Assembly: GCA_963771165.1 (NCBI GenBank)
Contig: CAVYSN010000001.1
Coordinates: 62,980 to 126,979 of the forward strand
Origin: an uncultured bacterium
Lineage (GTDB): Bacteria; Acidobacteriota; HRBIN11; JAKEFK01
Length of the DNA stretch: 64,000 bases
Direction: 5' to 3'
Of the stretch, positions 15,356 to 58,894 are shown piece by piece. Position 1 is the stretch's first letter. Each line of letters opens with the position of its first letter. Below the pieces are notes generated by a model, which did not search any database, was not told the DNA's origin, and saw nothing but the letters and a program-made list of their open reading frames with translations. The position numbers and the translations under genes were made by a program.

Positions 15356-16029
15356 TCACCATTCGACTTCCAGAAAAGTTTTCAGCAAGTCAGGTGACGT
15401 ATTCGCCAGACGAGTCATGGATTGAAAACCGGGCCCCTTGAAATCCGGTGGCACGCTTTTACCTATTTTTTGAAGCAATCCTGCAAGGACAGCAGGAAAA
15501 TGGCTGGTGACGGATACGAAGCGATCATGCTGGTTCGCATCAACAACCACCGGACGCCCTCCAAGGTCTTTCGCGAAAATTTGCACAGTTTTCAAATCCC
15601 GATGCGATGAATGCCTGGAAGTACAAACAAAAAATGGAGCATTCTCAAATAAGTTCTCCCGCCATCCTTTTTCGCCGGCAAATTCATTTCCAGTCATCGG
15701 ATGACCGCCAATAAAACGCAGTTTTCTGCGGTTTGCGAGCCGGATCAGTTTCGCTTTTCCGCTACACACATCCATCAACAGCCGGCCAGGATCAACCCTG
15801 TCGAAGAAAATCTGTTGTCTGAGCGTAATGAAGACAGATGACAGTGAGGTCTGCGTCCGCGGCATCTTCCCATTGCTTGCTCGCATGGTCAAGCAAGGAG
15901 TGGAGTAATTGGAGCCGTTTTGAGGAAGTATCAATACCTGTAATCGAATATGTGCTTTTGATTTTTTCGAAGCGTTAAAACGATGGAACCTCCGATCTGG
16001 CCGAGCCCGACGATGGCGATTCGCTTCAT
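15356..16029 (-). CDS. tyrA: Prephenate dehydrogenase (TyrA), frameshifted
   Basis: N-terminus [15 protein letters not shown] begins at 16029 in one frame. The core ([22 protein letters not shown]) is in the 15356..16255 frame. Its ATG overlaps the aroF TGA (ATGA). Confidence 0.75.
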
Positions 16030-17059
16030 CGCGTTTTCCAAAGCCTGTCCCGTCCAAGGGCAGATGCGATCGCCTTGAGCTCCCGCATGAGATCCGCGAA
16101 CCCTTGAAAATCGAGGCTCTGAGGGCCATCGCTTTTGGCTTTTTCCGGTTGTCCATGCACTTCAACCATGATTCCATCGGCGCCGACCGCAAGCGCGGCT
16201 TTGGCAAGCGCCGGCACCAGACTTCTCCTTCCCGCCGCATGACTCGGATCCACAATGATCGGTAGATGCGAAAGCTCCTTGATCACCGGTACAGCGGAGA
16301 TATCCAGCGTGTTTCGCGTGTATGTTTCGAACGTCCGGATTCCTCGTTCGCACAGCATCACCTGAGAGTTTCCACCGGAAAGAATGTATTCACTCGCAAG
16401 CAAGAATTCTTCGATCGTAGAAGACAACCCGCGTTTGAGCAGAACCGGTTTCTGGGCTTCGCCTGCGGCCTTCAGCAAAGAAAAATTTTGCATGTTGCGC
16501 GCTCCGATCTGAACCACATCGGCATATTGCACAGACCGTATTCATTTCAGAAGCGGACATCACTTCTGTAACAACCGGTAATCCGGTTTTTTCACGCGCT
16601 TCAGCCAGGTACTTCAGTCCCTCTTCTCCCAATCCTTGAAAACTATAGGGGGAAGTCCGGGGCTTATAAGCGCCGCCTCGTAACATGTGGGCGCCCTGTT
16701 CTTTTACAAATTCGGCAACTTCCAGTAAATGATCGCGTGATTCCACAGAGCAGGGACCTGCAATGATTACGAATCCTCCATGGGTCCCTACCTCGGAACC
16801 GTTGATGCGAACAACGCTGTCGGCTTCGTGGAAGTCGCGTGAAGCCATTTTGAATGGCTTTGTAATGCGAATCACTTCTTCCACAGCCTTCAAGATCCAG
16901 AAATGCTTCTCTGGAAATATGCGACGTGTCTCCCAGCAGACCAATGACCGTACGTTCCTCACCACGAGACACGTGATAACGAATGTTCATCTGATCCAGA
17001 TGTTGGATCACATCACTAATCTGTTTTAGCGTCGCCGCATGACCCATCACGACAATCAT
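16026..17059 (-). CDS. aroF: 3-deoxy-7-phosphoheptulonate (DAHP) synthase with N-terminal ACT-like regulatory domain (Thermotoga type), split in 3 frames
   Basis: [44 protein letters not shown] (ACT domain), then [14 protein letters not shown] ... [23 protein letters not shown], then [10 protein letters not shown] ... DPSH. The pieces are collinear with Thermotoga maritima DAHP synthase. Confidence 0.8.
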
Positions 17060-17076
17060 AAAAACCTCCTAGCTCA

Positions 17077-17138
17077 TTAACGCAAAGACGCAATGACGCA
17101 ATGAAAAAAATCTTCGCGGCTTAGCGTCTTTGCGTTAA
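17077..17138. repeat. Intra-operon hairpin TTAACGCAAAGACGC ... GCGTCTTTGCGTTAA between aroH and aroF (GACGCA-heptad family)
   Basis: 15-bp inverted arms with a 32-nt spacer. Followed on the minus transcript by the AGGAGG RBS of aroF. Confidence 0.55.
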
Positions 17139-17142
17139 ATCT

Positions 17143-17499
17143 TCATAGGTCCGGCCGCAGGGAAGCCGCATTGCCCAAGTACTGATGGCGTACATCTTCC
17201 TGAGCCGCATTTGTTTCAAACAAAACTAAAACTCGTAAAACTCTTTCCAGCGCTCCTTCTACGGGAATCTCCTGGCCACACAAGAAAGGAACCAATTCCC
17301 ATCCAAGTTTGGTCCGGACGGCTGCTGGAAATGCCGCATTCAAATCGGGCGTCACCGTAAAAAAAACCGTCGATACGTTCTCTCGCTGGATTTGATTCGA
17401 ATCGATCAATGCAAGCATCAACTCTTCGGCAGCTGCAACGATTGCCTGCTTCTCATTGATGCTGACCTGAATGGCTCCACGAACACCTCGTATCATCAC
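17143..17499 (-). CDS. aroH: Chorismate mutase, AroH class (monofunctional, B. subtilis type)
   Basis: MMIRGVRGAI ... TPDL ... LRPDL, about 118 aa, matches AroH end to end. Confidence 0.8.
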   Translation of the reverse strand: MMIRGVRGAIQVSINEKQAIVAAAEELMLALIDSNQIQRENVSTVFFTVTPDLNAAFPAAVRTKLGWELVPFLCGQEIPVEGALERVLRVLVLFETNAAQEDVRHQYLGNAASLRPDL

Positions 17500-18218
17500 A
17501 ATCTCCTGAAGCTTTCATAGAACTTTTGCAACTTCTCAACGTGACCTGAACGGATGATTTCAACGATTCTCGAACCAACGATAAATGCATCGATTGCGCC
17601 TTGATATGGTTCCGTGTCTACCGCACTCTTGATTCCGAAGCCGAGGGCCAAGGGCACGCGTGCGTGTTTCTTGACTTGAAATGCTTTATTTCTGATCTGC
17701 TCATGATTTTGAATCGTGGCGCCCGTTGTTCCCTTCAGGGAGAGCAGATACACAAATCCTTCGGCCGCCGCTGCGATTCGTTTTAAACGTTCTTCACCGG
17801 TTGAAAGGGAGATAAATGAAATCCAGAATATTCCACATTCTTTTGTCATTTCCCGCCACTCCGCCGATTCTTCAAAGGGCACATCCGGTACGATCAGATA
17901 CTTCGCGCCGCATTCCGCGGAAGCTTTCATGAATTCTCTCTGACCATACGCGAGAATCGGATTTGCGTACGACATCAAGGCCAGCGGTACGCGGGTGGAC
18001 TTGCTTTGCAAGAGCTCGAATAGAGAATCGATTGAAAAAGCGTGCTCCAGCACCTCAGAGGCGGCACTCGCCAGGACGGGTCCGTCAGCAACCGGATCTG
18101 TAAACGGGATTCCGATCTCAATCGTGTCGGCGTATTGCAGCGTAAGATCCAGGATTTCTGAGAAACGGGATGCATCAGGGAACTGCGCCAGCAAATAAGG
18201 ATAAAAGAGTTTTTTCAC
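17496..18218 (-). CDS. trpA: Tryptophan synthase alpha chain
   Basis: TrpA family similarity across 240 aa. Overlaps trpB by 4 nt. Confidence 0.85.
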   Translation of the reverse strand: MKKLFYPYLLAQFPDASRFSEILDLTLQYADTIEIGIPFTDPVADGPVLASAASEVLEHAFSIDSLFELLQSKSTRVPLALMSYANPILAYGQREFMKASAECGAKYLIVPDVPFEESAEWREMTKECGIFWISFISLSTGEERLKRIAAAAEGFVYLLSLKGTTGATIQNHEQIRNKAFQVKKHARVPLALGFGIKSAVDTEPYQGAIDAFIVGSRIVEIIRSGHVEKLQKFYESFRRL

Positions 18219-19381
18219 TCCAGCTCCTCCAGCACAATGTTGAGATCCTTGTCGCCGCGTCCCGATAAATTCACCACAATCGCGCCGCTCTGATTTGTCA
18301 GTGTTTTCAGATAAGCGATTGCATGACAGGATTCCAGGGCAGGAAGAATTCCTTCTGTTTTTGCCAGTGTTTGAAATGCCTCAAGGGCTTGCTGATCGGA
18401 AACAGTTACGTATTGCACACGTCCCGTGTCTTTCAAGTGGCTGTGCTCCGGACCAACCGCCGCATAATCCAGTCCGGGCGCTATGGATTCCGTGTCCTCA
18501 ATCTGTCCCTGTGATCTTTGCAAGACATAGGTGTAAGCGCCGTGCAGAATTCCCGGTTTGCCATGTTTGAGTGTTGCAGAATGGTGTCCGGGTGCGTCGC
18601 TGTTTCCCCCCGCTTCCACTCCTATCAACCGAATGCCCGTGTTGAGGAGTGGATAGAATAGTCCGATCGCGTTGGATCCGCCTCCTACGCAAGCGATTGC
18701 AACAGAAGCTTTTTGATTCTCAACCTGAATCTGCGCAACAACTTCTTCACCGATCACTTTTTGGAAATTGCGAACAATCATCGGATACGGATGAGGTCCT
18801 ACGACGGATCCGATCAGGTAATGAGTATTGTCGACGTTTGCAATCCAGTCGCGGAGCGCTTCGTTGATTGCATCTTTCAACGTTTGTGAACCCTGGACCA
18901 CAGGACGGACTTCCGCGCCAAAATGTTTCATCCTGCGAACATTCAATTGTTGTCGCTGCACATCTTTTGCGCCCATATACACAACGCAATCGAGTCCAAG
19001 CCGTGCACAAGCTGCGGCAGTAGCGACTCCGTGCTGCCCGGCTCCCGTTTCAGCAACGATCCTGCTCTTCCCAAGTTTTGCTGCGAATAGAGCTTGACCG
19101 AGACAGTTGTTGATTTTGTGTGCGCCTGTATGGCACAGATCTTCGCGCTTTAAATAAACCGGTCCGATTTGTAATTGCTCGGTTAGACGTTTTGCAAAAT
19201 AAAGTGGCGTCGGTCTTCCTGCAAATTCTTTCAGCTCGCGGGATAGGCTGCTTCGGAATTCGGAAGATCCGGCTATCCGTTCATAGTCGCTTTCGAGCCG
19301 CAACAACGCTTCCATCAATGTTTCCGGGACAAATCGCCCACCATACTTACCGAAATATCCCCGGCTATCCGGTACTGTCAT
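18215..19381 (-). CDS. trpB: Tryptophan synthase beta chain
   Basis: PLP-enzyme motifs (HTGAHKINN, GGGSNAIG). Confidence 0.9.
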   Translation of the reverse strand: MTVPDSRGYFGKYGGRFVPETLMEALLRLESDYERIAGSSEFRSSLSRELKEFAGRPTPLYFAKRLTEQLQIGPVYLKREDLCHTGAHKINNCLGQALFAAKLGKSRIVAETGAGQHGVATAAACARLGLDCVVYMGAKDVQRQQLNVRRMKHFGAEVRPVVQGSQTLKDAINEALRDWIANVDNTHYLIGSVVGPHPYPMIVRNFQKVIGEEVVAQIQVENQKASVAIACVGGGSNAIGLFYPLLNTGIRLIGVEAGGNSDAPGHHSATLKHGKPGILHGAYTYVLQRSQGQIEDTESIAPGLDYAAVGPEHSHLKDTGRVQYVTVSDQQALEAFQTLAKTEGILPALESCHAIAYLKTLTNQSGAIVVNLSGRGDKDLNIVLEELE

Positions 19382-20685
19382 TTTCCGTTCACCAGCCGGA
19401 TGAATTCGCGAATCTTATTTCCATCTTTGATGCCCGGCTCGCTTTCGACGCCGCGTGCTACATCGACCCATTCCGGATGACAAAGCGAAATCGCCTGTGA
19501 GATATTTCCTGCATGTAATCCGCCGGCAAGCGCAAACAGGGATTTCCGGCTCAGTAGTTCCCATGCCTGAGGGAGATCGGATTCCGGGATTTTGATGTCG
19601 AGCAAACGACCTTGAGAAGCTTCGGTTTGCTCTGCTATTTCACGCAAAGACGTTAGAGTTGTTGCATGCCAGGTTGGAATCGAAGCGCTGCACGAATCAT
19701 AGATCTGGGCGATGTTCAGGGCGCATTCGGCGATGGTTGATTCGATCTCCTGCCGCGATTGATTGCGAAATACGCCGATGCATGGAACAGCAATCCGTTC
19801 ACGGAACGACTTCAGGCTCTCAACGGAGATTCGTCTCGGACTCTCTGCGAAAATGAACCCCAGAGCAGAAGCTCCCAACTCAGCGGAAGTTCTCGCATCA
19901 CGCTCAGTTGTGATGCCACAGATTTTTACCTTCGTGTGCGATGCAGATCGAACAAAGCGGGACAGTTCTTCGGCTGGATTTTCGGAACGCAGAAAATGTT
20001 CGCCAATCAAAGCGCCGTTGTATCCAAGCGAAAAAACTTTTCGCAAAACCTCAACACTGTCGATGCCGCTTTCTGCAATGCAGTAAGCATCGGGAAGAAG
20101 ATCTCTCATTCGAACAAATCTTGATAGATCGACCTGCAAGGTCTCCAGATCGCGTGAATTTACGCCAATGTACCGGACCGGGAAATCGAGTTTCTGCAAA
20201 TCCTTCTCGTCCGTGACTTCAACAATCGCATTCATTCCGATCTTTTCACACAATTGTTGCATTTCTCGAATCTGTTCCGGTTTTAGAAATCTTGTAATCA
20301 GCAGAATAAAATCTGCACCGGCTTCCTTTGCTTCAAGGATCTGGAATTCATCCAAAATAAAATCCTTTTGCAAAAGCGGCGTCGAAACTGCTCGGCGCAC
20401 CTGGCGCAAATCGTCCAGCGATCCTTGAAAGAAGTGTTCTTCGGTCAACACCGAAATGGCTGCGGCTCCTGCAGCTTCATAGGATCGAGCCAGCCGGTCG
20501 AGATCCAGGCCCGGTCGAATCGCGCCGACCGAAAGCGATGCGCGTTTGATCTCTGCAAAAATTCGGAATTGATTTCTCTCCCAATAGAGACGCCGGTCAT
20601 CCAGAGGAACATCCGGCGTATGCTGCGATTTACGTTGTTCCACATCGGTCTTTTTACGTTTCAGAAGCTCCGCGATTGTTTTCAT
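19378..20685 (-). CDS. trpCF: Bifunctional indole-3-glycerol-phosphate synthase / phosphoribosylanthranilate isomerase (TrpC-TrpF fusion)
   Basis: IGPS half (MKTIAELL ..., FILDEFQILEAKEAGADFILL, IGVNSRDLETL) plus PRAI half (KICGITTERDA ... IQIYD). The real ATG at 20685 overlaps the trpD TGA. The track start 20922 is a read-through extension. Confidence 0.85.
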   Translation of the reverse strand: MKTIAELLKRKKTDVEQRKSQHTPDVPLDDRRLYWERNQFRIFAEIKRASLSVGAIRPGLDLDRLARSYEAAGAAAISVLTEEHFFQGSLDDLRQVRRAVSTPLLQKDFILDEFQILEAKEAGADFILLITRFLKPEQIREMQQLCEKIGMNAIVEVTDEKDLQKLDFPVRYIGVNSRDLETLQVDLSRFVRMRDLLPDAYCIAESGIDSVEVLRKVFSLGYNGALIGEHFLRSENPAEELSRFVRSASHTKVKICGITTERDARTSAELGASALGFIFAESPRRISVESLKSFRERIAVPCIGVFRNQSRQEIESTIAECALNIAQIYDSCSASIPTWHATTLTSLREIAEQTEASQGRLLDIKIPESDLPQAWELLSRKSLFALAGGLHAGNISQAISLCHPEWVDVARGVESEPGIKDGNKIREFIRLVNGK

Positions 20686-21690
20686 GCGGGGAACATCTCC
20701 TGGAGTCGTTTTACCACGCGAAGGGCCGCGCCTGAATCCAACGATTCGATCACAGCCTGCTTTGCACTTTCCTCCGTTGCATCCGGATGGTATGCAAGAT
20801 AACCCAGCAAAGCGTTGAGTAATACAGTATCCCGTCGGGCACCTTTTTCTCCGTTCAAAATGGCCTGCGTAATCCGTGCGTTCTCCGCCGGCGAGCCTCC
20901 TTTCAGGTCTTCGCTGCAGCATTCCAGGAACCCGAAATTCGCTGCATTTTTGACGTCAGGTGGCCCAAACGTGCTGTGTAGAATGAATTCAGCAGAAGGG
21001 GATGCTTCATCGAAGCCATCCACTGAATGAACCAGGAAGGCGCGCTTTTGAGAATCGAGTTTTCGAATTGCTGACTCCATCAAAGGAAGAGCACGCCTTT
21101 CATAGACTCCAATGACTTGAACCTCAGGAATGGCTGGATTGGTCAACGGCCCGAGTAAATTGAAGATGGTTGGAGTGTCAAGCTGTTTTCGGACCATAAC
21201 AACAGATTTTGTTGCCGGATGATAGTCGGGAGCAAAGAGGAAAACGAAACCGGTTTTTTCCAGCGCCCGCGGACAGCTGTTCCGGGCTCATGCTGTGCGA
21301 GATCCCCAGCTCATGCAAGAGATCCGCGCTTCCGCTTGCCGATGAAGCGGCACGATTTCCGTGTTTGACGATCGGAATTCCGCACCCGGCCAGAACAAAT
21401 GCTGCGCTCGTTGAAATGTTAAAACTATTCTTTTTATCTCCGCCGGTTCCACAAGTGTCCATGATCCGAATCCCATTCAAATGAACTCGAATGCATTTTT
21501 CCCTCATCGCTGCAGCAAAACCAGCAATTTCTTCGGCGGTTTCCCCTTTCCTGTGAAGCTCTGTTAGAAACGCTCCGGTTTGTGCAGAATCCCATGCTTG
21601 TTCCATCATTGCGAAAACAGCTTCTTTACTTTCGCGGGCGTTTAAATCCTCACCGAGCTTTACCTTTTCGATGAACTCTTGATATTTCAT
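20682..21690 (-). CDS. trpD: Anthranilate phosphoribosyltransferase, split in 2 frames
   Basis: N-terminus MKYQEFIEKV ... DTCGTGGDKKNSFNISTSAAF (21178..21690) and C-terminus (20682..21197) are collinear. Confidence 0.8.
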
Positions 21691-21712
21691 TTTCGCAGTT
21701 GACCTATTAACG

Positions 21713-21818
21713 CCCGCGAGATCCTCCCAAAAGTTAGTTGGAGCGCGGACTTCCAGTCCGCAAAAACTGTTAAGCTCCACGAGTCTATTGCGGGCCAAAG
21801 ATGTCTGCGCTCCCACTA
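21713..21818. repeat. ~105-nt structured intergenic repeat, copy B (trpG-trpD spacer)
   Basis: Aligns with copy A at 12631..12740. Fills nearly the whole 125-nt trpG-trpD spacer. A C to T change in the 3' arm keeps the long-range stem as a G-U pair when read as the plus-strand RNA. Confidence 0.7.
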
Positions 21819-22388
21819 AATCTGATCCAGGAAGTTTTTCATCAAGCGCATTCCTTCCTTTGTCATATAAGATTCCGGATGAAATTGCACACCTTCGGTC
21901 ATTGTTCCTCGCACTCGAAGTCCCATGATCTCTCCCGCTGGCGTGTGCGCAGAAATATGCAGCTCAGCTGGAAGCTTTTCTTCAGCCACAATCAATGAAT
22001 GGTAGCGCGCCGCCGCAAACGGGTTTGTCAGTCCTGAAAAGACTCCATTCCCATCATGGATGATCATGGATGTTTTCCCGTGCATTAGAACAGGAGCGCG
22101 TTGTACTCTCCCGCCAAAAACATGTGCGATGCATTGATGACCGAGGCAAACCCCAAGCACAGGAACCCTGGAGTGAAAATGCAAGATCATTTCATTGGAG
22201 CAGCCGGCATCAATCGGTGTTCCCGGTCCAGGTGAAATCACGACATGTGAGGGGCGGTACTCTTCCGCCTCCTGCACTGTAACCTGATCGTTATACTTAA
22301 CCTTCACATCGGCTCCCAGTATCAGAAAAGCCTGATACAGGTTGTATGTAAATGAATCGTAGTTATCGATCAGCAGGACACGGTTCAT
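21816..22388 (-). CDS. trpG: Anthranilate synthase component II (glutamine amidotransferase)
   Basis: Class-I GATase motifs (GVCLGHQ, H/E triad region). Confidence 0.85.
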   Translation of the reverse strand: MNRVLLIDNYDSFTYNLYQAFLILGADVKVKYNDQVTVQEAEEYRPSHVVISPGPGTPIDAGCSNEMILHFHSRVPVLGVCLGHQCIAHVFGGRVQRAPVLMHGKTSMIIHDGNGVFSGLTNPFAAARYHSLIVAEEKLPAELHISAHTPAGEIMGLRVRGTMTEGVQFHPESYMTKEGMRLMKNFLDQI

Positions 22389-23710
22389 AAAGGCTCCCGG
22401 GACATCTCCAACATTTTTCGCAGCGCCATCGCTTTATTGTTAATCTCTTCGAACTCTTTTTCGGGAACAGAATCTGCAACAATTCCCGCTCCTGCTGTGA
22501 AACGATAACGTCCTTCCTGGTACTGAAGACATCGAATCGCTATGCAATGATCCAGCACTCCATGTGCGCCGAAATAACCAACCGATCCGGCATAGAGCCC
22601 GCGACTGTGCGGTTCGAGCTCTTCAATGATCTGCATCGCACGCACCTTCGGTGCGCCCGATACTGTGCCGGCAGGAAAGACGGAAGAGAGTAGTTTTTGC
22701 AGAGATGGCGTTTTCGAAACAGTGGATTCCACCGTAGAGACAAGATGCATTACGTGCGAGTATCGTTCCACTTTCATGAACTCTGTGACCTGAACGGATC
22801 CGGGATCGGCCAGCCTTCCCAGATCGTTTCTTGCAAGATCCAGCAGCATCATGTGTTCCGCCTTTTCTTTTTCATCTTGCAGCAGATCGGTTTCGAATCC
22901 CCGATCTTCCTCCTCATCCTTGCCGCGCTTGCGCGTTCCGGCAATCGGCCGCAACAGGATTCTGGATCGCTCCGTGCGCACCATGGTTTCAGGACTCGAT
23001 CCGAAGAATTGAAAACGGTCCTGGAAATTTAAATAGAACATGTAAGGGGAAGGATTGATCATTCGAAGCGCGCGGTACATTTGAAATGGATCGGCTTCAC
23101 TTTCACCATCATATTGCATCGAGAGCACCACTTGATAAATATCTCCCGCAGCGATAAACGCTCTCGCTCGTTCGACCATCGACTCGAATTCTTTTTTGGA
23201 CACATTCGCGACTGGTTCGGAAGATGAGCCGGAACGGGGCATGGGAAGAATTGTACGAAGGCATGCGCGAATCTCCTGCGCAAGCTTGTCTGTTCTTGCT
23301 CGTCAAGTATCGAATTCAGATAGATTCTGTTCTTCAGATGATCAAACGAGAGGATCGCAGAGGGAAGAACGAATCCCGCTAGAGGATCCCTGGAAGGTTT
23401 GAGACTGATTTTTGGGTGCAGTAGAGCCGCGAGCGGATACGACAAAAATCCGATGAATCCGGAAGTCAGTCTTCCATTTTCTTTTTCGGGCAACGAATGG
23501 ATTTGTTCTTCCAGTGAATCGAAGTACGGTCCGGCCTGAGCCGGATCTTCCAGAACAAAGTATTGCTTTGGGCAGAATTCCGATGAAGGAATATCTTCCC
23601 ATGGTTTCGTTTTTTTCAACGCTTTCCAAAAGGAAGAGCGGCTGCAATGGCGTCAGCTTCAGAAATGCCGAAACCGGAGTCTCTAGATCCGCCGCAAACT
23701 CGTTACTCAT
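22385..23710 (-). CDS. trpE: Anthranilate synthase component I, split in 3 frames
   Basis: Pieces 23342..23710 (MSNEFAADLETPVSAFLKL), 23059..23619 and 22385..23242 (chorismate-binding domain, GTVSGAPKVRAMQII) are collinear. Confidence 0.8.
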
Positions 23711-23728
23711 TGCTCATGACTCATTACT

Positions 23729-23768
23729 AAAAACAAGAAAACCCACTGACTCTTTCGAATCAGTGGGT
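23729..23768 (-). terminator. trp attenuator terminator: 12-bp stem, GAAA tetraloop, then UUUUCUUGUUUUU
   Basis: The minus transcript ACCCACUGAUUC-GAAA-GAGUCAGUGGGU is followed by a U-run, 18 nt upstream of the trpE ATG. Confidence 0.8.
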
Positions 23769-23819
23769 CGTTAAGATTCCTTTTAATTTGTCGTGGTCAG
23801 AGGAAGCCCAACAACCCGC

Positions 23820-23867
23820 CTAGCGGTACCACCAGTAATAGCGGTTGATTGTTGGACGAAACTTCAT
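23820..23867 (-). CDS. trpL: trp operon leader peptide MKFRPTINRYYWWYR (tandem Trp codons)
   Basis: 15-codon ORF with UGG UGG at codons 12-13, ending about 50 nt upstream of the attenuator terminator. Confidence 0.7.
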   Translation of the reverse strand: MKFRPTINRYYWWYR

Positions 23868-23995
23868 ATCTGACCTACATGGAGAACATAGACTAGTTCC
23901 CGTTCCATTGTCAAGGTGAGTGGGGATAAGAGAGGTCAAAAGCTAAAAGTTAAAGGTTAAAGGTGTTTACTCAGAAAACACCTCATCCTTTGATG

Positions 23996-24551
23996 CTACA
24001 ACCAGGCTAGATATTGTTGCAAAACTTTTTTGACAAACATTCGGGTGGTACGAAAGGGAGGGATTCCGCGATGTCGATCTACAGCGAACTCTCCGGTGTT
24101 ATAAGCAGCAATCGCAAGCTCCAGATTTCCGGCATACCGGTCGATTAACATTTTGAGATGCTGCACGCCTGCGTCAATGTTTTTGTATGGATCGTACAGT
24201 TCCTGTGCGCTGACCTTATACCGTGAAGCGGTTCGCGGTGTGAGCTGCATCAGTCCGCGAGCACCTTTGTTGGACGTAGCCTTCGATTTGAAATTTGATT
24301 CGTGTTTCATCAAAGACGCTACAAGCTGCCAGCTGACCCCGTATTTTGTTGCCACGTTCATGAACCATATCCGCGTAACGCGGAGGTACGAAGTGGGATG
24401 GTAGAACAGACGGTTTTAATTCCCCGGGGGGAGCCAACAGTGCAAGATCAAAGCTCGGAGTGGCGGGAATGATCTCAAAGGATTCCTCTGCCACTGAGAG
24501 GCTGCCGGAAAACAGCAGCAATGCACAGACAAACAAAGACCATCGAAACAT
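23996..24551 (-). CDS. Lytic transglycosylase (SLT domain) with signal peptide, frameshifted
   Basis: N-terminus MFRWSLFVCALLLFSGSLSVA (24216..24551). SLT domain ESNFKSKATSNKGARGLMQLTP (23996..24361) is in another frame. Confidence 0.7.
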
Positions 24552-24672
24552 AAAATTTACCTCTCCAGTTTATGAATGCGGGGAAAAACTCAGTCCTGTT
24601 TCGTGATCTATCGTTGATTCAACAGCTATTTTATGATTTTTTTTTGGCTTTGCAATGTTTCGCAGAAAAAAA

Positions 24673-30897: not shown

Positions 30898-32985
30898 TCA
30901 GGCGATTTTTTCTTGTGGGGCGGACATTTTAGCCGAGACGGCTTCAAGATCCGCGTACAATTCAGAAATTTTCTGATATCGCTTATCCGGATTCTTTGCC
31001 ATTGCGCGGATGAGAACTTCTTCCAACTCCTTCAGAAGGGTTGGATTGATGCTTGTCGGTTTAGGAACCGCCTCCCGGATATGTTTATTCAACACAGCAA
31101 GCGACGAATCTGCTATAAAGGGAAGTCTTCCGGTAAACACTTCAAACAACACGACACCGGCCGAATAGATGTCTGTCCGATGATCCACTCCGAGCCCCTG
31201 TGCCTGTTCGGGTGACATATAGTCGGGTGTTCCCATAATGGTTCCGGCTGAAGTCATTCCTTTCATATCCGCAACGCGCGCAATCCCGAAATCCATGATT
31301 TTCACATCGCCGGTGCTTTCCAGAAGTATGTTCTGGGGCTTCATGTCGCGATGGACAACCCCTTTTTCATGCGCTGCATCGAGAGCGCTGCAAATCTGTT
31401 TGCCGATTTGCAGCCCGATCCGGACCGGCAGCATCCCGCGTTGCCGTATGAGATGCTTCAATGTAATACCTCTTACATATTCCATACTAATAACATAGTA
31501 GTTATCCAGCTCGCTGTAATCGTACGTCCGCACGACATTGCGATGCGTTATTCTGCGAGCAAGCTTCAGCTCCTGTTTGAAGCGATCGAGAGCTACGGGA
31601 TCCTGTTGAAATACTTCGCTTTTTAGAAGCTTCAGGGCGACAACTTCATCCAGCTGTCTATCCAACGCCTTGAACACGACTCCCATGCCTCCCGCTCCCA
31701 GGATCGACTGCACCTGGTAGCGACCGGCGATAATAGAACCTGGCCCGATGGACTCCAGAGAAACGGAGGACTGGGTCCCGGAAGTCTGCGGCGATGGCGA
31801 AATGAAACCAGTGGGCGCATTGGCCGAGAAAGTGACTGTGGGTTGCTGCGAAAGGTATTCCACCAGCTGCTGTTTCTCCTTCAATTGTGACAGGAGCTTT
31901 TTGAACGATTGGGCCAGTATCCCAACTTCGTCGCGAGAGGTTGTCTCAATCGGGACATCGAAATTGCCTTCTTTAACTTCGTTCACTGCATTGGTAAGAT
32001 CGCGCAATGGACCTGTGATCCGGCGCGATCCCAGAAAGCTAATCAGAAAAGCAAGAGCCATCATTCCGATACCAACGATCAGCACGTTCTTTTGAAACTG
32101 CCGGAACGCAAACAACTCGCGGTCCAGAGAGCGAAACGCCGCAAATCTACCGAGCGTTTGCCCATCCAGATTTTTCAACAGTCTGTAAACTCCAACATAC
32201 TTCTCGTTGCCGATCTGAAACTCGAACGGCACATCCGGTGTGCTTGCGGCGGAAACGGATTGCGTTAGGTCTTCACGTTCTTCTGTAATCGTGCTTGCAA
32301 TCAAGGAAAGCCCGTCTTTCTCAATGAAGAACGCAGCCTCTGAATGAGTGTATTCCTTGAGTTGAGTTACGAGGGCATCGTTGATCGAATATCCGACGGC
32401 GAGCGCTGCGGTGATGATATCTCCTGTAACAACCGGAAGCGCAATCGCGTGATACAGATTCTGATTTTCCAGCATCAATCCGCTGACTTCGTCTCCTTCC
32501 AGAGCGCTGGAAATCAAAGGAACATTTTCGAGACTCTGTCCGCTGACGCCCGGTTTATCCGTACGCGCAAGAATCACACCCTCCGCATCCGTGACGATTA
32601 TGAAATTGCTTTTGATGCTTTCTTCTGTGTCGCGCGCCAGATCCAGGATGCTGTTGGAATCGGCTTCCTGAATATATGCTTGAATATATGGACTTTGCGC
32701 AAAAATCTTGTTTGCAATTTTTAGCTTCTCATAGCGGTCTTTCTGAAATGTTTCAAAAACCGACAGCGTTTGTTTCAGATCTGATCGAATAGTTTCATGC
32801 GCGAGCGCCCTTGCTCTACGGGAGCTGAAAAGAATGGTTACGGCGATCAACAACACGATGATCAGAGCCGTGAAGAGGAAGAATTTCAGATTCAGGCTAA
32901 GACCGGGCTTAGTATCGTTCATTTTCGTCGTAATCTTTCCCGAATTTGTTTTTGTGCTTTGCTTTCTTGAAATTCCGTCCGTCAA
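30898..32985 (-). CDS. Receptor-type Ser/Thr protein kinase: TM, periplasmic sensor (Cache-like), HAMP, kinase
   Basis: N-terminal TM helix, ~250-aa extracytoplasmic region, second TM, HAMP-like segment (GPLRDLTNAVNEVKEGNFDVPIE), then a canonical kinase (GAGGMG, ALK, HRDMKPQN, DFG). Confidence 0.75.
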   Translation of the reverse strand: MTDGISRKQSTKTNSGKITTKMNDTKPGLSLNLKFFLFTALIIVLLIAVTILFSSRRARALAHETIRSDLKQTLSVFETFQKDRYEKLKIANKIFAQSPYIQAYIQEADSNSILDLARDTEESIKSNFIIVTDAEGVILARTDKPGVSGQSLENVPLISSALEGDEVSGLMLENQNLYHAIALPVVTGDIITAALAVGYSINDALVTQLKEYTHSEAAFFIEKDGLSLIASTITEEREDLTQSVSAASTPDVPFEFQIGNEKYVGVYRLLKNLDGQTLGRFAAFRSLDRELFAFRQFQKNVLIVGIGMMALAFLISFLGSRRITGPLRDLTNAVNEVKEGNFDVPIETTSRDEVGILAQSFKKLLSQLKEKQQLVEYLSQQPTVTFSANAPTGFISPSPQTSGTQSSVSLESIGPGSIIAGRYQVQSILGAGGMGVVFKALDRQLDEVVALKLLKSEVFQQDPVALDRFKQELKLARRITHRNVVRTYDYSELDNYYVISMEYVRGITLKHLIRQRGMLPVRIGLQIGKQICSALDAAHEKGVVHRDMKPQNILLESTGDVKIMDFGIARVADMKGMTSAGTIMGTPDYMSPEQAQGLGVDHRTDIYSAGVVLFEVFTGRLPFIADSSLAVLNKHIREAVPKPTSINPTLLKELEEVLIRAMAKNPDKRYQKISELYADLEAVSAKMSAPQEKIA

Positions 32986-54355: not shown

Positions 54356-57300
54356 ATGACTCATACGCGCAAAGACCCTCTGATTGGCAGCAGGATCCGG
54401 GAATACGAGATTCTTGAACTGCTGGGAAAAGGAGGGATGGGTTCTGTCTATCGAGCTCGCCATGCCTATCTCGAAGAAGAACGCGCAATCAAAGTCATTC
54501 ATGGCCGACATACCGGTGATAGTGGTTTCATCGAGCGCTTCATACGTGAAGCAAAGATCCTGACAAGACTGCGCCATACGAATCTGGTCCAGCTTTATGA
54601 ATTCGGGACGTTGGAAACGGATTCATTTTTCATGGTGATGGAATTGATCCGCGGAGAAAGTGTGTGGCACAGGATCCAACGAATGGGGCGAATTCCAATT
54701 CCGGATGCCGTTCGAATGATGCGTGAAGCCGCTTCCGGTCTCCAATGCGCCCATCAAAATGGAATTATTCATCGCGATATTTCGCCTGACAATCTCATTC
54801 TTCTGAACAATAGCCTCCCGGAAATCACGAAGGTCATTGATTTCGGAATTGCAAAACCTTTGCTGGACACCTCCCTGCAGCTCACGGCTTCCAATCTGTT
54901 TATAGGCAAACCGGAGTATTGCAGTCCGGAACAATGCACGTTTTCCGAAAACAGACAGCCGCTCGATGCGCGCTCCGATATTTATTCCCTGGCGGTTACG
55001 TTTTATCAGATGTTGACAGGAAATCTTCCGTTCTATTCAAAAAGTCCACAGGGTTACTTCATGAAACACGCTCACGAACTACCCGATGCTCCTTCTTCCC
55101 ATTTTGCGGCAGGAACTTTTCCGGAGCTTTTAGACAGGCTGATTTTAAAGGCGTTGTCAAAACGACGTGAAGATCGCCACGAAAACCTCGGAGAATTTTT
55201 ATCTGAGCTCGACGCATTCTCTGAACAGCGAAGCATTCCCCTTCTGTTTTCTTCCGAACCGGAGATTGGAGAAGTGTTTGCCGGACGTTACTTGATAGAA
55301 AAGAAGCTCGGCAAGGGCGAGATGGGAATGGTTTTTCAAGCGGTCGACAAGATATTGGAGATTCCAGTCGCTTTGAAAACGATCTCCTGGGACATCGCGG
55401 AAGATGAAAAGAATTTGGCGCGTTTTAAGCGGGAAGTGATCCTGGCACGCAAAGTAAGTCACGCGAACGTTTGCCGCGTGTATGACATTGGAGAAAACGC
55501 AAATGTTCATTATGTATCGATGGAACTTGTGGAAGGTAAGACGCTTGCGGATTACATGCGCGCCCAGGGGCGGCTCACGATGGAAGCAGCCATCCCGATT
55601 TTGGAACAGGTGCTATACGCGATTCGCGAGACTCATCGTGCAGGGATTATTCATCGCGATTTAAAACCGCAAAACATCATGATCGATCAACAAATGCGCT
55701 TGAAGATCATGGATTTTGGAATCTCACTCTCGCCAGATTTTTCTCGAATTACGCAAACCGGATCACTTCTTGGAACGCCGCATTACATGGCTCCCGAAGT
55801 TTTTGAGGAAAAGAAGGTGGATGAGCGCGCGGATCTTTATTCCTTTGGCGTTTTGATGTACGGCCTATTTACGGGACGCCTTCCGTTCGATGGCCCGACT
55901 CCGATCGCTGTTATCTATGCGCACCTAAAGGGAGATCCGCTCAAACCTTCAGAGATTGTTCCGTCATTTCCAGCAGGTTTGGAGCGAATCATTCTGAAAG
56001 CTCTGCAAAAAGAACCTTCGAAAAGGTATGAAAGCGCAGACAAAATCCTTCATGATCTTGCGTTGATCAGTCAACCGACTTCCGATCCGAAGTTGCATGC
56101 AGGGGAACAATTTACACATAAGTTGATTGCGGAGCACCGGTATGGAAAAGCGATCCGGGTTCTTCAGTCGTTGCTGAAAGAACACCCGGGCAACCTTCAA
56201 TGGAAAAAACTTTTAAAGAATGCGGTCGCAGAGAAAGCAAAAAGGGACATTCATCGCACACGATTTTTGATACGCAAAGGCAACTGGATGCAGGCTGAAG
56301 TGTGTCTGGACCGAATTGGAGGACCGCAGCTGGAAGTTCCAGGCGTTCTCAATCAGGTCAAGAAACTGCAGGAGCTTCTGATATCCGGGAAAAAATTCGC
56401 GGTTGAGAAGTACGTGAAGGAAGCAGAGGAGAGGCTTTTGAGAAGCGACTATCTGGCCGCGATGGCGAGTCTGGAATCTGCATGGCATTTGCAGCCAAAC
56501 GATCCTGCAATCATTCAAATGCAGGAAAAAATTCAGCTCGCACAGGAAACGGAATCCACGGAAAAATATAAAAAACAATTGAATGAAGCTCAATTGCTGT
56601 TGTCTGAAGGTCACGATGAACAAGCGTTCTCCATTGCTCAGGAAATTCTTGGCGAAAACCCTTCCCATCGATCAGCCAAGGCTCTTCATGATCAAATTCT
56701 CGATAGCCGTTGGGAGAAAGTTCAGGAGCCCATCAAGCAAGGCCTCGAACTTGCCGTTCAACCCCTCTCTTTTTGTGATTTTGAAGTTGCGCTGGATCTG
56801 TTAATGAAATTGCAAAGCGATCTTGAGATAGAGTCCTGCCGAAAGGAAATTGACAGGATCCGGAAAGCCGTCACATCGCTCGACTCGGCTTTTCAAGCGG
56901 AGCAGTACTACGACGTTCCGCACGTGGTGAAAAAATTGCTCGCAAAGGATCCCTTTCGCTGGTTGGAACCGCATCGTTCTGTTTTTACCGAAATTGAAAG
57001 CGCTGCTGCGGAAAGACTAACCCAGCGTCAAAAGACAGTTCAGGAAGCGCTATCCGAAAGCCGAACCCTCTTGAACGCAGAACGTTACTTAGAAGCACTG
57101 GCTAGAGTAGAAGAAGTATTGACAAGCTGGTCCGTGCCGGAAGCGGAAGAATTGAGATCTAGGATCCTTCATGCCTATCGAGAATCGAAACAGCGAGAGG
57201 CGCAAGAATTCGCCGTGCAACTGGAATGGGAGCAAGCGATATCATGCTGGAAGGAGATCCTTGTTTTTTTTCCGGAAGCAGCCGAAATCAAGCAGTCTGT

Positions 57301-58894
57301 GTCACAAGCCGAATCTCATGTGCGAACGGAACTTGGCGCTCAACAAGAACTTCTTCGTAATCTGAAAAATTGCTATTCCTTAATTCTAAAAGAGCACTGG
57401 GCGGAGGCGCAGGATCTTGTCGAAAGCATGTTGAAATCGATTCAGCCGGGATTCCGGCTCATTGAAATGGAGAAGCAGATAGAGGCGCTCCAGACTGAAA
57501 TCCTTCTTTATAACAGACAGCAGCAAAAGCATCTGGAATCTGTTTCGCTTGAATTATCGGAGATTCGAAAACTGTACAGACGCGGACTATACGCAGAGGC
57601 CCTGGAAAAAATTTCCTTGATACTCGAGTTGGATATTGTGCAGGAAGAGGCTTTGGAATTGAAGATTTCCATTGAAAAAGCCATTCAGGTCCAGTCTGTG
57701 TCGTTGAGGTTCCAATCGGCAGTGCAAAAAGGGAAGGAGTACTACGAGCGCCGGAACTGGCAGAAGGCGATTGAGTTCTGGAAGAAGGCGAGTTCACTTT
57801 CGGATGAGACCTACGTGAAGGATTGGATCGATCAGGCCGAGCAACTTTTGAAAAAGGAACGGCAGACTCGCTTATCAATCATTGCAATGCTTGCCGAAGC
57901 GGAAGAATTAATCTTTTACAACAAATTTGTAGAAGCTGGCCGGAAAATCGACAAATGCAGAAAAGCTCTCTCAAACGAGTTTTCCCTGGAAGATCTTTCC
58001 GAACAAGTACGAAAGTTATCAGCCAGACTGGAGACTGAAATACAAAAAGAGGAGGCCTTTCGTTACAGTCTGCAAGCAGAACTGGAAGAAGCGGCGCTTC
58101 TGTATCATCAAAAGCTTTATCCGCAAGCGCTGCTGAAACTGGATGCGATCCTGCAACAACAGCCTGAAATGGAGACTGCCATGCAGTTAAAATCTTCGAT
58201 TGAAGCGGCCGAAGGGGAGGAACGGAACGTGTTGGAGATCATTCGAGCCGTTGTAAAACTCGTTGTGAAAAAGGACTTCAAGCACCTTCCGGGTTTGTTG
58301 TTGAAGCTCAAGGAAACATCGATCCGAACACCTTATGCCGAAGATTGTTCAAGCATTATTGATGAAATGCCTTTACTGGTTCTGGAAATCGAATCGGGTG
58401 ATCAGGTTGCTGTGCAAGGACGGTTGGATCGTTTGTTTTCGCGATCTTTGCTCTTGCTCGAGTATGAACAGACGCTAAGGACTTTTGTAGAAGCACTGGA
58501 ATCGAGGAATCAGAAGGAACATGATCTGCAAAAGACGCTTTCGGAAGGACTCGAGTTATTGGAAGCAGGGGATCGTAAAGGAGCGCTCCAGTGTTTGGAG
58601 AGATTTCATCTGATCCTTGGAGGTAAACAGCAGAAAAAAAAATCTCAACCCGCGGAACATTTAGACCGGACAGCAACGTTATCTGACGACGATCTGAAAC
58701 TTTCCGAATTCGAATTGCAGACTCTACAACATTCGTTGTTGCATCATGAAGTTGAATCGATCCTTTCAACTGCTCATAACATCCTGATCGCCGGTGACAA
58801 AGCGCGAGCAGAGGAGCTATTCTTGCAAGTTCTTGAAATCGAACCGGACAACCAGGGAGCGCTCGAAGGATTGCGCCAAGTAAAACAGGATTGA
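54356..58894 (+). CDS. Giant tandem dual Ser/Thr kinase with ~900-aa C-terminal TPR/coiled-coil array (1512 aa)
   Basis: Kinase 1 has GKGGMG, AIK, HRDISPDN, DFG. Kinase 2 has GKGEMG, ALK, HRDLKPQN, DFG. Both carry a full catalytic residue set. The rest is helical repeats. Confidence 0.85.
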   Translation: MTHTRKDPLIGSRIREYEILELLGKGGMGSVYRARHAYLEEERAIKVIHGRHTGDSGFIERFIREAKILTRLRHTNLVQLYEFGTLETDSFFMVMELIRGESVWHRIQRMGRIPIPDAVRMMREAASGLQCAHQNGIIHRDISPDNLILLNNSLPEITKVIDFGIAKPLLDTSLQLTASNLFIGKPEYCSPEQCTFSENRQPLDARSDIYSLAVTFYQMLTGNLPFYSKSPQGYFMKHAHELPDAPSSHFAAGTFPELLDRLILKALSKRREDRHENLGEFLSELDAFSEQRSIPLLFSSEPEIGEVFAGRYLIEKKLGKGEMGMVFQAVDKILEIPVALKTISWDIAEDEKNLARFKREVILARKVSHANVCRVYDIGENANVHYVSMELVEGKTLADYMRAQGRLTMEAAIPILEQVLYAIRETHRAGIIHRDLKPQNIMIDQQMRLKIMDFGISLSPDFSRITQTGSLLGTPHYMAPEVFEEKKVDERADLYSFGVLMYGLFTGRLPFDGPTPIAVIYAHLKGDPLKPSEIVPSFPAGLERIILKALQKEPSKRYESADKILHDLALISQPTSDPKLHAGEQFTHKLIAEHRYGKAIRVLQSLLKEHPGNLQWKKLLKNAVAEKAKRDIHRTRFLIRKGNWMQAEVCLDRIGGPQLEVPGVLNQVKKLQELLISGKKFAVEKYVKEAEERLLRSDYLAAMASLESAWHLQPNDPAIIQMQEKIQLAQETESTEKYKKQLNEAQLLLSEGHDEQAFSIAQEILGENPSHRSAKALHDQILDSRWEKVQEPIKQGLELAVQPLSFCDFEVALDLLMKLQSDLEIESCRKEIDRIRKAVTSLDSAFQAEQYYDVPHVVKKLLAKDPFRWLEPHRSVFTEIESAAAERLTQRQKTVQEALSESRTLLNAERYLEALARVEEVLTSWSVPEAEELRSRILHAYRESKQREAQEFAVQLEWEQAISCWKEILVFFPEAAEIKQSVSQAESHVRTELGAQQELLRNLKNCYSLILKEHWAEAQDLVESMLKSIQPGFRLIEMEKQIEALQTEILLYNRQQQKHLESVSLELSEIRKLYRRGLYAEALEKISLILELDIVQEEALELKISIEKAIQVQSVSLRFQSAVQKGKEYYERRNWQKAIEFWKKASSLSDETYVKDWIDQAEQLLKKERQTRLSIIAMLAEAEELIFYNKFVEAGRKIDKCRKALSNEFSLEDLSEQVRKLSARLETEIQKEEAFRYSLQAELEEAALLYHQKLYPQALLKLDAILQQQPEMETAMQLKSSIEAAEGEERNVLEIIRAVVKLVVKKDFKHLPGLLLKLKETSIRTPYAEDCSSIIDEMPLLVLEIESGDQVAVQGRLDRLFSRSLLLLEYEQTLRTFVEALESRNQKEHDLQKTLSEGLELLEAGDRKGALQCLERFHLILGGKQQKKKSQPAEHLDRTATLSDDDLKLSEFELQTLQHSLLHHEVESILSTAHNILIAGDKARAEELFLQVLEIEPDNQGALEGLRQVKQD

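Follow-up and report, generated by a model that had tools for sequence, protein, structure and literature searches.

A conserved leader element upstream of trpE in a lineage labelled Acidobacteriota has the features of a ribosome-mediated attenuator

The stretch of DNA analyzed here (64,000 nucleotides (nt) of contig CAVYSN010000001.1, from an uncultured bacterium labelled Acidobacteriota; hereafter the window) carries on its minus strand a nine-gene operon that starts with trpE. Between a promoter-like site and the trpE start codon lies a short leader containing an open reading frame (ORF) with adjacent Trp codons and an intrinsic terminator. We conclude that this element is very probably a ribosome-mediated leader-peptide transcription attenuator, controlling trpEGDC/FBA-aroH-DAHPS-tyrA via the supply of charged tRNA-Trp. 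The features of the locus, in the order in which they would be transcribed, are as follows.

23885–23914, minus strand: promoter-like site with 10/12 matches in a consensus scan, consisting of TTGACA (23914–23909), an 18-nt spacer and TATGTT (23890–23885)
23869–23875, minus strand: GGUCAGA, with the likely Shine-Dalgarno (SD) AGG of the leader ORF; pairs with UCUGACC (23801–23795) in the minimum free energy fold
23820–23867, minus strand: leader ORF, ATG (at 23867) plus 14 codons plus TAG (23822–23820), encoding MKFRPTINRYYWWYR*
23848–23855, minus strand: segment 1, CCAACAAU, ORF codons 5–7; partner of segment 2 (anti-antiterminator)
23835–23840, minus strand: tandem Tyr codons UAU UAC, codons 10–11; a third Tyr codon, UAC, is at 23828–23826
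23829–23834, minus strand: tandem Trp codons UGG UGG, codons 12–13, the putative regulatory codons
23807–23817, minus strand: segment 2, GGGUUGUUGGG, partner of segment 1 or segment 3; begins 2 nt past the stop codon
23765–23775, minus strand: segment 3, CUUAACGACCC, partner of segment 2 (antiterminator); its final 4 nt, ACCC, start the 5' arm of the terminator
23729–23768, minus strand: intrinsic terminator (3:4), ACCCACUGAUUC / GAAA / GAGUCAGUGGGU + UUUCUUGUUUUU; stem-loop 23768–23741, U-run 23740–23729
15356–23710, minus strand: operon of trpE, trpG, trpD, trpC/F, trpB, trpA, an aroH-type chorismate mutase, DAHP synthase and prephenate dehydrogenase (tyrA)

Part of this anatomy had been proposed in a first-pass annotation made from the sequence alone. 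The 15-codon ORF, its adjacent UGG UGG (23834–23829) and a terminator with a 12-bp stem, GAAA tetraloop and U-run are all present as described. The distance from the end of the terminator U-run to the trpE ATG (23710) is exactly the 18 nt claimed. The Trp codons do lie upstream of the terminator, but ∼60 nt from its stem rather than the ∼50 nt given. One of the 12 bp in the stem is a U·G pair, and the consensus scan scores 13 pairs. In the window, AGG lies 6 nt 5' of the start of the leader ORF. The fold of the 190-nt leader has a z score of −5.9 relative to dinucleotide shuffles.

To find relatives of this locus, we scanned a genome collection with the C-terminal part of TrpE as the query, and collected further members by protein search, through TrpB and with a metagenome pattern scan. 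The genome collection yielded one close relative, L001 (67% identity), and its remaining TrpE matches, all at ≤59%, came from Nitrospirota, Aquificota, Terriglobales, Proteobacteria and others. Protein searches revealed a discrete TrpE clade, with 59–88% identity to L001, an outlier at 52% and a next tier at ≤52%. Besides L001, we examined the loci of eight members of this clade, picked for the length of their contigs, and of one further member reached via TrpB. The element is positioned directly before trpE in all 10 of the relatives found by TrpE or TrpB alone (L001, L081–L084, L093–L096 and L098), the TrpE identities of which to L001 are 52–88%. For the metagenome scan, the pattern fixed segments 2 and 3; in seven of its eight matches the element immediately precedes trpE, and the other match (L091) is a false positive. 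The window and these 17 other loci make up a set of 18 leaders, and some of the analyses below were done on 17 aligned leaders, seven of the aligned sequences having come from the metagenome pattern. The TTGACA of the promoter-like site is invariant, at a similar distance, in 17/17 aligned leaders. The peptides encoded in the 10 relatives are given below.

L001: MIYCSTINHYYWWYRY; shares the GCGGGUUGUUGGGC block, and its terminator has compensatory changes
L081: MITISSLNVNRYYWWYR
L082: MKIYPTFNRYYWWYR
L083: MICPTNRYWWYP
L084: M(TM)RTQRTWWWPRKGLLVVL
L093: MMRPTINRYYWWYH
L094: MNSSTKRYSYWRP
L095: MTIQNPTRWWRP; TrpE identity 52%
L096: MIRPTHRHYYWWYPF
L098: MMIAPTFNRYYWWYR

The gene 5' of the leader varies by locus (SLT, epimerase, glycosyltransferase, M23 peptidase, sulfatase) and is often on the opposite strand. 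As the upstream neighbor differs and trpE is constant, the element belongs to trpE. Where members of the clade are named, the label is 'Acidobacteriota bacterium' or simply 'bacterium', and the sources are for the most part soil metagenomes. We built a covariance model (R1) from the leader family and searched the window and 85 loci with it. The leader was the single R1 match in the 64 kb of the window (152 bits), and the loci of Nitrospirota, Aquificota, Terriglobales and proteobacteria yielded no family member. A weak R1 match in L017 (28.6 bits) represents a non-homologous small ORF and terminator. In this Deltaproteobacteria metagenome-assembled genome (MAG), the small ORF MALTITPITWRAAGAAGEGSV (L017:2843–3005), with a single Trp codon, is located ∼250 nt upstream of trpE and is followed by a strong terminator, GGCCGCGGCGUUU..AAACGCCGCGGCC, with a U-run.

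Two members of the family depart from the common form. The leader of L094 (L094:1346–1484) contains a lone Trp codon (RYSYWRP), and its 2:3 pairing is weaker (AAAAACCC). In L084 (L084:2383–2519), the peptide contains WWW and no Tyr, and the usual stop codon is lost, such that the ORF runs through segment 2 to a UGA within CUCUGACC.

With the codons of the 18 leaders aligned on the Trp pair, several signs of translation are evident. An in-frame start and stop are present in 18/18 leaders. The stop codon falls at a common position as TGA (9 leaders), TAA (4) or TAG (1), and lies one codon later in three more. The Arg codon at −3 varies among CGC, CGT, CGA and CGG in the aligned leaders, and at −1 Tyr is encoded by TAC or TAT. 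UGG UGG is found in 17/18 leaders (extended to UGG UGG UGG in L084), L094 having the single UGG. Across the leaders, AGG occurs 5–12 nt 5' of the AUG. At the last position of the peptide, R, P and H alternate, in step with changes at an RNA pair. A stop codon fixed by position rather than identity, together with synonymous variation, is the pattern of a translated ORF, and we infer that the leader ORF is likely to be translated.

The fold predicted in the absence of the ribosome contains a long hairpin, in which GGUCAGA pairs with UCUGACC and segment 1 (CCAACAAU) pairs with segment 2 (GUUGUUGG), with two small hairpins in between and the terminator thereafter. In the alignment of 17 sequences, 93% of alignment cells are paired in this terminated state, compared to 28–48% in slid controls, and six pairs show compensatory changes. 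None of 500 shuffles matched the observed pairing percentage, compensatory cells or covariation score, although 12 of 500 matched the count of compensatory pairs. The helix at the ribosome-binding site, GGUCAGA:UCUGACC, is 95.8% paired, with a compensatory CG-to-UA change in two sequences, while the 1:2 helix is 92.8% paired and has one-sided changes only. The terminator helix is 96.6% paired, with compensatory changes at three pairs. A GC↔CG swap is seen in the hairpin at the stop codon, where a change of the last codon from CGC (Arg) to CCC (Pro) co-varies with a change of GCGG to GGGG. This co-variation indicates that the RNA pair, not the residue, is conserved there.

The first-pass annotation had named two results that would speak against attenuation, the lack of an alternative antiterminator and a small ORF that is not conserved upstream of trpE in relatives. 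Both were tested, and neither refuted the interpretation. The WW ORF recurs before trpE in the 10 relatives retrieved by TrpE or TrpB and in the seven metagenome pattern matches, and an antiterminator can be drawn in which GGGUUGUUGGG (23817–23807) pairs with CUUAACGACCC (23775–23765), overlapping 4 nt of the 5' arm of the terminator. The 9-bp core of this 2:3 helix is 98.1% paired in the 18 sequences, compared to 26–53% in slid controls. Segment 2 includes the block GGGTTGTTGG, which is invariant in 18/18 leaders and is the sole 10-nt block invariant throughout; segment 2 is also the only element that needs two pairing partners. In the window, calculated energies are −34.6 kcal/mol for 1:2, −18.7 kcal/mol for 2:3 (with an inner UUCCU:AGGAA helix) and −20.3 kcal/mol for 3:4. 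The predicted read-through fold also contains an extra helix, GGUCAG:CUGAUY, formed with the terminator arm; it is 89.8% paired, six sequences break one pair, and no covariation is seen. We speculate that this helix might sequester the rest of the terminator arm during read-through.

To model the switch, we folded transcripts truncated before the 3' arm of the terminator, as a proxy for co-transcriptional folding, with ∼30 nt masked for the ribosome. In both the window and L001, placing the A site of the masked ribosome at the Trp codons leads to the 2:3 antiterminator, whereas a mask on the stop codon covers segment 2 and no 2:3 is formed. This holds for 16/17 aligned leaders, in which 2:3 forms with the mask at the Trp codons and not with the mask at the stop. 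When no mask is applied, 1:2 forms in the window and in 14/17 leaders, these no-ribosome folds having included untranscribed promoter sequence. L096, L084 and L095 need no mask to adopt 2:3, and L094, with its single Trp codon, never forms 2:3. The gap between stop codon and segment 2 is 0–3 nt in 16/17 leaders. The footprint of the ribosome extends ∼12 nt downstream of the first A-site base. With such a footprint, a ribosome at UGG leaves GGGUUGUU free, and one at the stop codon covers exactly GGGUUGUU.

The anatomy of the element, its conservation, the compensatory changes, the translation signatures and the in-silico switch are established here; Trp-dependent read-through and the kinetics of the switch are predictions of the model, which would operate as follows. 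Transcription would start a few bases 5' of GGUCAGA, and the 15-codon ORF would be translated while RNA polymerase proceeds. When Trp-tRNA is plentiful, the ribosome would reach the stop codon, and since segment 2 (GGGUUGUUGG) starts only 2 nt past this codon, the footprint would cover it. Segment 3 would then be free to form the 3:4 hairpin, which, with the U-run, would cause termination 18 nt before trpE. When Trp-tRNA is scarce, the ribosome would stall at UGG UGG, covering segment 1 (CCAACAAU) and exposing segment 2. Segment 2 could then pair with segment 3 once this is made, removing ACCC, the G+C-rich base of the terminator next to the U-run, and allowing read-through into trpE. With no ribosome on the leader, 1:2 would pair, extended by GGUCAGA:UCUGACC, and the terminator would form again. 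The model predicts that changing GGGUUGUU to CCCUUGUU in segment 2 would result in constitutive termination, and that the further change of AACGACCC to AACGAGGG in segment 3, with the 3' arm of the terminator repaired, would restore regulation. The structural features that define the attenuator class are found here in silico: an ORF with clustered Trp codons, an intrinsic terminator before trpE, a 2:3 antiterminator, and 1:2 pairing with ribosome masking.

A number of observations weigh against this interpretation. The SD of the leader ORF is weak (AGG). L094 has a single Trp codon, and L084 has lost the usual stop. Changes in the antiterminator helix are from U-A to U·G only, with no covariation, although the test is uninformative because segment 2 is invariant. 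The evidence for 2:3 conservation is also limited by the seven sequences that were retrieved with a pattern fixing segments 2 and 3. The overlap of 2:3 with 3:4 amounts to only 4 nt (ACCC), so that each excludes the other just in part and kinetics must decide. When the A site is placed on the second UGG, the model of the window slightly favors residual 1:2 pairing (−24.6 versus −23.5 kcal/mol). Finally, full-length equilibrium folds always keep the terminator, and the antiterminator was never seen in them under a mask. When E. coli trpL (its sequence verified in 5,422 E. coli genomes) was subjected to the same procedure, its equilibrium fold also kept the terminator and behaved no better. Because a proven attenuator fails in the same way, we rejected the equilibrium fold as a test; since both leaders keep the terminator at equilibrium, the decision must be kinetic here, as in E. 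coli.

The state of the downstream genes raises a further concern. In the window, trpE lies in three frames, trpD is in two pieces, DAHP synthase is in three pieces and tyrA is frameshifted, and if these frameshifts were real, the operon would be a relic. Window trpE and that of L087, the closest full-length relative, are equally long overall (1326 nt); the window gene has an extra nucleotide (+1) at a CCC/AAA site near 23572 and a net change of −1 around 23289–23304. Paired, compensating indels across many genes are more likely to be assembly errors than decay, and on this basis the frameshifts look like assembly indel errors rather than marks of pseudogenes. The leader sequence itself agrees with those of the relatives. 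In the intact relatives L097 and L098, the gene order is identical to that of the window operon. In the window, L097 and L098, CM_1, DAHP synthase and prephenate dehydrogenase lie directly 3' of trpA. The chorismate mutase of the operon is of the CM_1/AroH type, and its DAHP synthase has a ferredoxin-like N-terminal domain.

Several other explanations of the element can be considered. One is chance, an ordinary terminator (e.g. that of the SLT gene) beside a random short ORF. Short ORFs are frequent, and the consensus scan finds terminator-like sites no commoner than in shuffled sequence. Yet the element tracks trpE in 17 other loci with differing upstream genes, some of them on the opposite strand, and the SLT gene has a hairpin and U-rich stretch of its own (∼23985–23935). 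Moreover, the leader is conserved more than trpE (85% identity between window and L087, compared to 72% for the trpE coding DNA), and compensatory changes are present. Chance juxtaposition is, on these comparative sequence data, already contradicted, and we regard it as most improbable. Nearly as hard to sustain is a switch that is real but driven by an RNA-binding protein or small ligand (TRAP-, T-box- or riboswitch-like), with the ORF incidental. The RNA elements, especially segment 2, are conserved more than most of the peptide, and a 7-nt tandem repeat containing GAG is present at the trpE start; both speak for such a switch. But no T-box or other Rfam family matches at E ≤ 10, and the leader lacks an array of closely spaced (G/U)AG triplets. 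Retention of the stop codon by position rather than identity, the synonymous changes and the retention of UGG UGG also argue against it, and the 0–3-nt spacing between stop codon and segment 2 makes sense only for a ribosome. We therefore consider control by a protein or ligand very unlikely.

Two proposals would add to ribosome-mediated attenuation rather than replace it. One is that the leader is a bivalent aromatic attenuator, in which stalling at either the Tyr (Y10, Y11) or the Trp codons leads to antitermination of the nine-gene supraoperon. The YYWWY core occurs in 14/18 leaders, with Tyr at −2, −1 and +2 in 15/18 each, and TAC and TAT vary synonymously. The loop of a hairpin contains the second Tyr codon, in which all variation is at the third base and synonymous, so pairing does not account for the conservation of this codon. 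In addition, the operon includes chorismate mutase, DAHP synthase and, from the tyrosine branch, prephenate dehydrogenase, and the geometry suggests that a ribosome held at the Tyr codons, 3–6 nt further upstream, would block segment 1 more fully and would not obstruct segment 2. The thr and ilv leaders of E. coli, which are multivalent, provide a precedent; to our knowledge, a leader peptide integrating Trp and Tyr is undescribed for trp operons. On the other hand, L095 (TRWWRP) and L084 (TWWWP) have no Tyr codons, two Tyr codons would confer only weak sensitivity, and these codons may be kept for codon context or nascent-chain effects. In the case of the Phe-Tyr-Phe AroR leader of C. glutamicum, transcription was reported to be unaffected by Tyr availability (PMC11802643). 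Given these data, Tyr sensing is a possibility that we hold tentatively. If true, one leader peptide would integrate two aromatic amino acids, making this a Tyr-responsive leader-peptide attenuator. The other proposal is that the terminated leader RNA (∼140 nt) or the peptide also acts in trans, like rnTrpL/peTrpL of Sinorhizobium meliloti, another soil bacterium, for which such a function has been reported (PMC6614838, PMC7298713). For a leader, both the RNA and the peptide core (NRYYWWY) show an unusual degree of conservation, but cis constraints alone can explain this, and neither a target nor other evidence was found here; a role in trans is unlikely.

Attenuation by a translating ribosome was the interpretation of the first-pass annotation, which likened the element to E. 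coli trpL, and the antiterminator and the conserved WW ORF support it in silico. Like E. coli trpL (RF00513), the window leader has a 14–15-codon ORF in which a UGG pair lies close to the end, and a stop just before segment 2. Pairings 1:2, 2:3 and 3:4 are mutually exclusive in both, the terminator lies directly before trpE, 2:3 and 3:4 are of comparable stability, and the two leaders behave the same in the ribosome-masking model. Unlike E. coli trpL, with which it has no detectable sequence or structure homology, the window leader encodes a peptide with a YYWWY core and has an antiterminator–terminator overlap of only 4 nt. It also differs in its extra conserved helix, which joins the leader ribosome-binding site to UCUGACC, in the presence of chorismate mutase, DAHP synthase and prephenate dehydrogenase in the operon, and in its Acidobacteriota-labelled host. 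Rfam 15 gave no match to Trp_leader (RF00513), T-box or any other family, either in 23000–24600 (cmscan, E ≤ 10) or in the whole window at gathering thresholds. A weak match to PyrG_leader (28.6 bits versus a threshold of 65) is due to the terminator alone and was dismissed. The window leader is hence analogous to, and not a member of, Rfam Trp_leader. The lack of a match to this enterobacterial family, together with the label 'Acidobacteriota bacterium' on the nearest named relatives, bears out the earlier remark that the locus is not proteobacterial.

Similarities are also seen with the classical trp attenuators predicted or shown in Actinobacteria (Corynebacterium, Streptomyces) and alpha-proteobacteria (Sinorhizobium trpL), which have double or triple UGG codons and G+C-rich terminators with U-tracts. 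In proteobacterial and actinobacterial attenuators, multiply pairing sequence blocks are conserved over large distances (PMC1262725), and segment 2, GGGUUGUUGG, parallels these blocks. Unlike those attenuators, the leaders described here form an independent, A+U-richer family with complementary blocks of their own (CCAACAA / GGGUUGUUGG / AACRACCC). The aroR leader of C. glutamicum, located before aroF (DAHP synthase), encodes a Phe-Tyr-Phe peptide and acts by attenuation, sensing Phe, with Tyr availability reported to have no effect (PMC11802643). It resembles the window leader in having aromatic codons, including Tyr, and in controlling a common-pathway aromatic gene, but has no Trp codons and controls aroF rather than a trp operon. 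The TnaC type of sensor, a nascent peptide (W...D...P-stop) that responds to free tryptophan by stalling at its stop codon and thereby blocks Rho-dependent termination, can be set aside, as termination here is intrinsic and the last residue is R, P or H; stalling at the stop codon would here favor termination, unlike in TnaC. On reading the window leader, we found no TRAP-type array (∼9–11 (G/U)AG triplets with 2–3-nt spacing over the antiterminator). The only repeat is a 7-nt unit (4.4 copies), which lies past the terminator, where trpE begins. In the accessible parts of the literature, trp attenuators are described for gamma- and alpha-proteobacteria and Actinobacteria (PMC1262725, PMC6614838, PMC11802643), and nothing specific to Acidobacteria was found there.

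Short ORFs with two or three adjacent Trp codons also occur 80–270 nt upstream of trpE in Steroidobacteraceae, other Gammaproteobacteria and three Armatimonadota MAGs; none with WW(W) was found at the trpE loci of Nitrospirota, Aquificota or Terriglobales. These leaders differ from the family described here, with unrelated peptides (RWWWP.., QWWWRE) and RNA, and were undetected by R1. In the Armatimonadota MAGs (L028, L029 and L064), the ORFs encode ..GQWWWRE.. and ..GRWWWRG.. and lie ∼210–270 nt upstream of trpE, with a strong terminator-like hairpin in L064. This suggests that they represent an independent trp leader-peptide family.

Other features of the locus can be noted. The 7-nt tandem repeat (unit AAUGAGU, ∼4.4 copies, 23698–23728, minus strand; AGUAAUGAGUCAUGAGCAAUGAGUAACGAG) bridges the terminator and the trpE start. 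It yields three ATGs in three frames, of which only the last opens trpE. The repeat is also present in L093 and L098, and in fewer copies in L087 and L088. Possibly, it provides start-site context or a protein-binding GAG array. Between the SLT-domain gene (24361–23996) and the trp promoter, at ∼23935–23985 (minus strand), is a hairpin, AGGUGUUU-UCUGAGU-AAACACCU, with a U-rich stretch that holds a second 7-nt tandem repeat (UUAACCU, 23933–23964). This hairpin probably terminates the upstream lytic-transglycosylase (SLT) gene. In the L001 genome, G+C-rich palindromes (GUAGGGGCG...CGCCCCUAC) lie between the attenuator and trpE (L001:3446–3522) and between trpA and aroH (L097:6390–6440); these resemble REP-type intergenic repeats and are absent from the corresponding sites in the window. 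Elsewhere in the 64 kb are three large genes for PknB-type Ser/Thr protein kinases (361–2280, 30898–32985 and 54356–58894), one product of which has 1512 amino acids and two kinase-like regions.

The element is a new sequence family of a known attenuator type, conserved and previously uncatalogued in this lineage. It changes no general principle; what it adds is a case of textbook trp attenuation in an uncultured lineage that lives in soil and is labelled Acidobacteriota. The 18-sequence family and its covariance model can be used for RNA family databases and for MAG annotation. The design is convergent: the spacing from stop codon to segment 2 and the invariant, doubly paired block re-create the logic of the E. 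coli leader without sequence homology.

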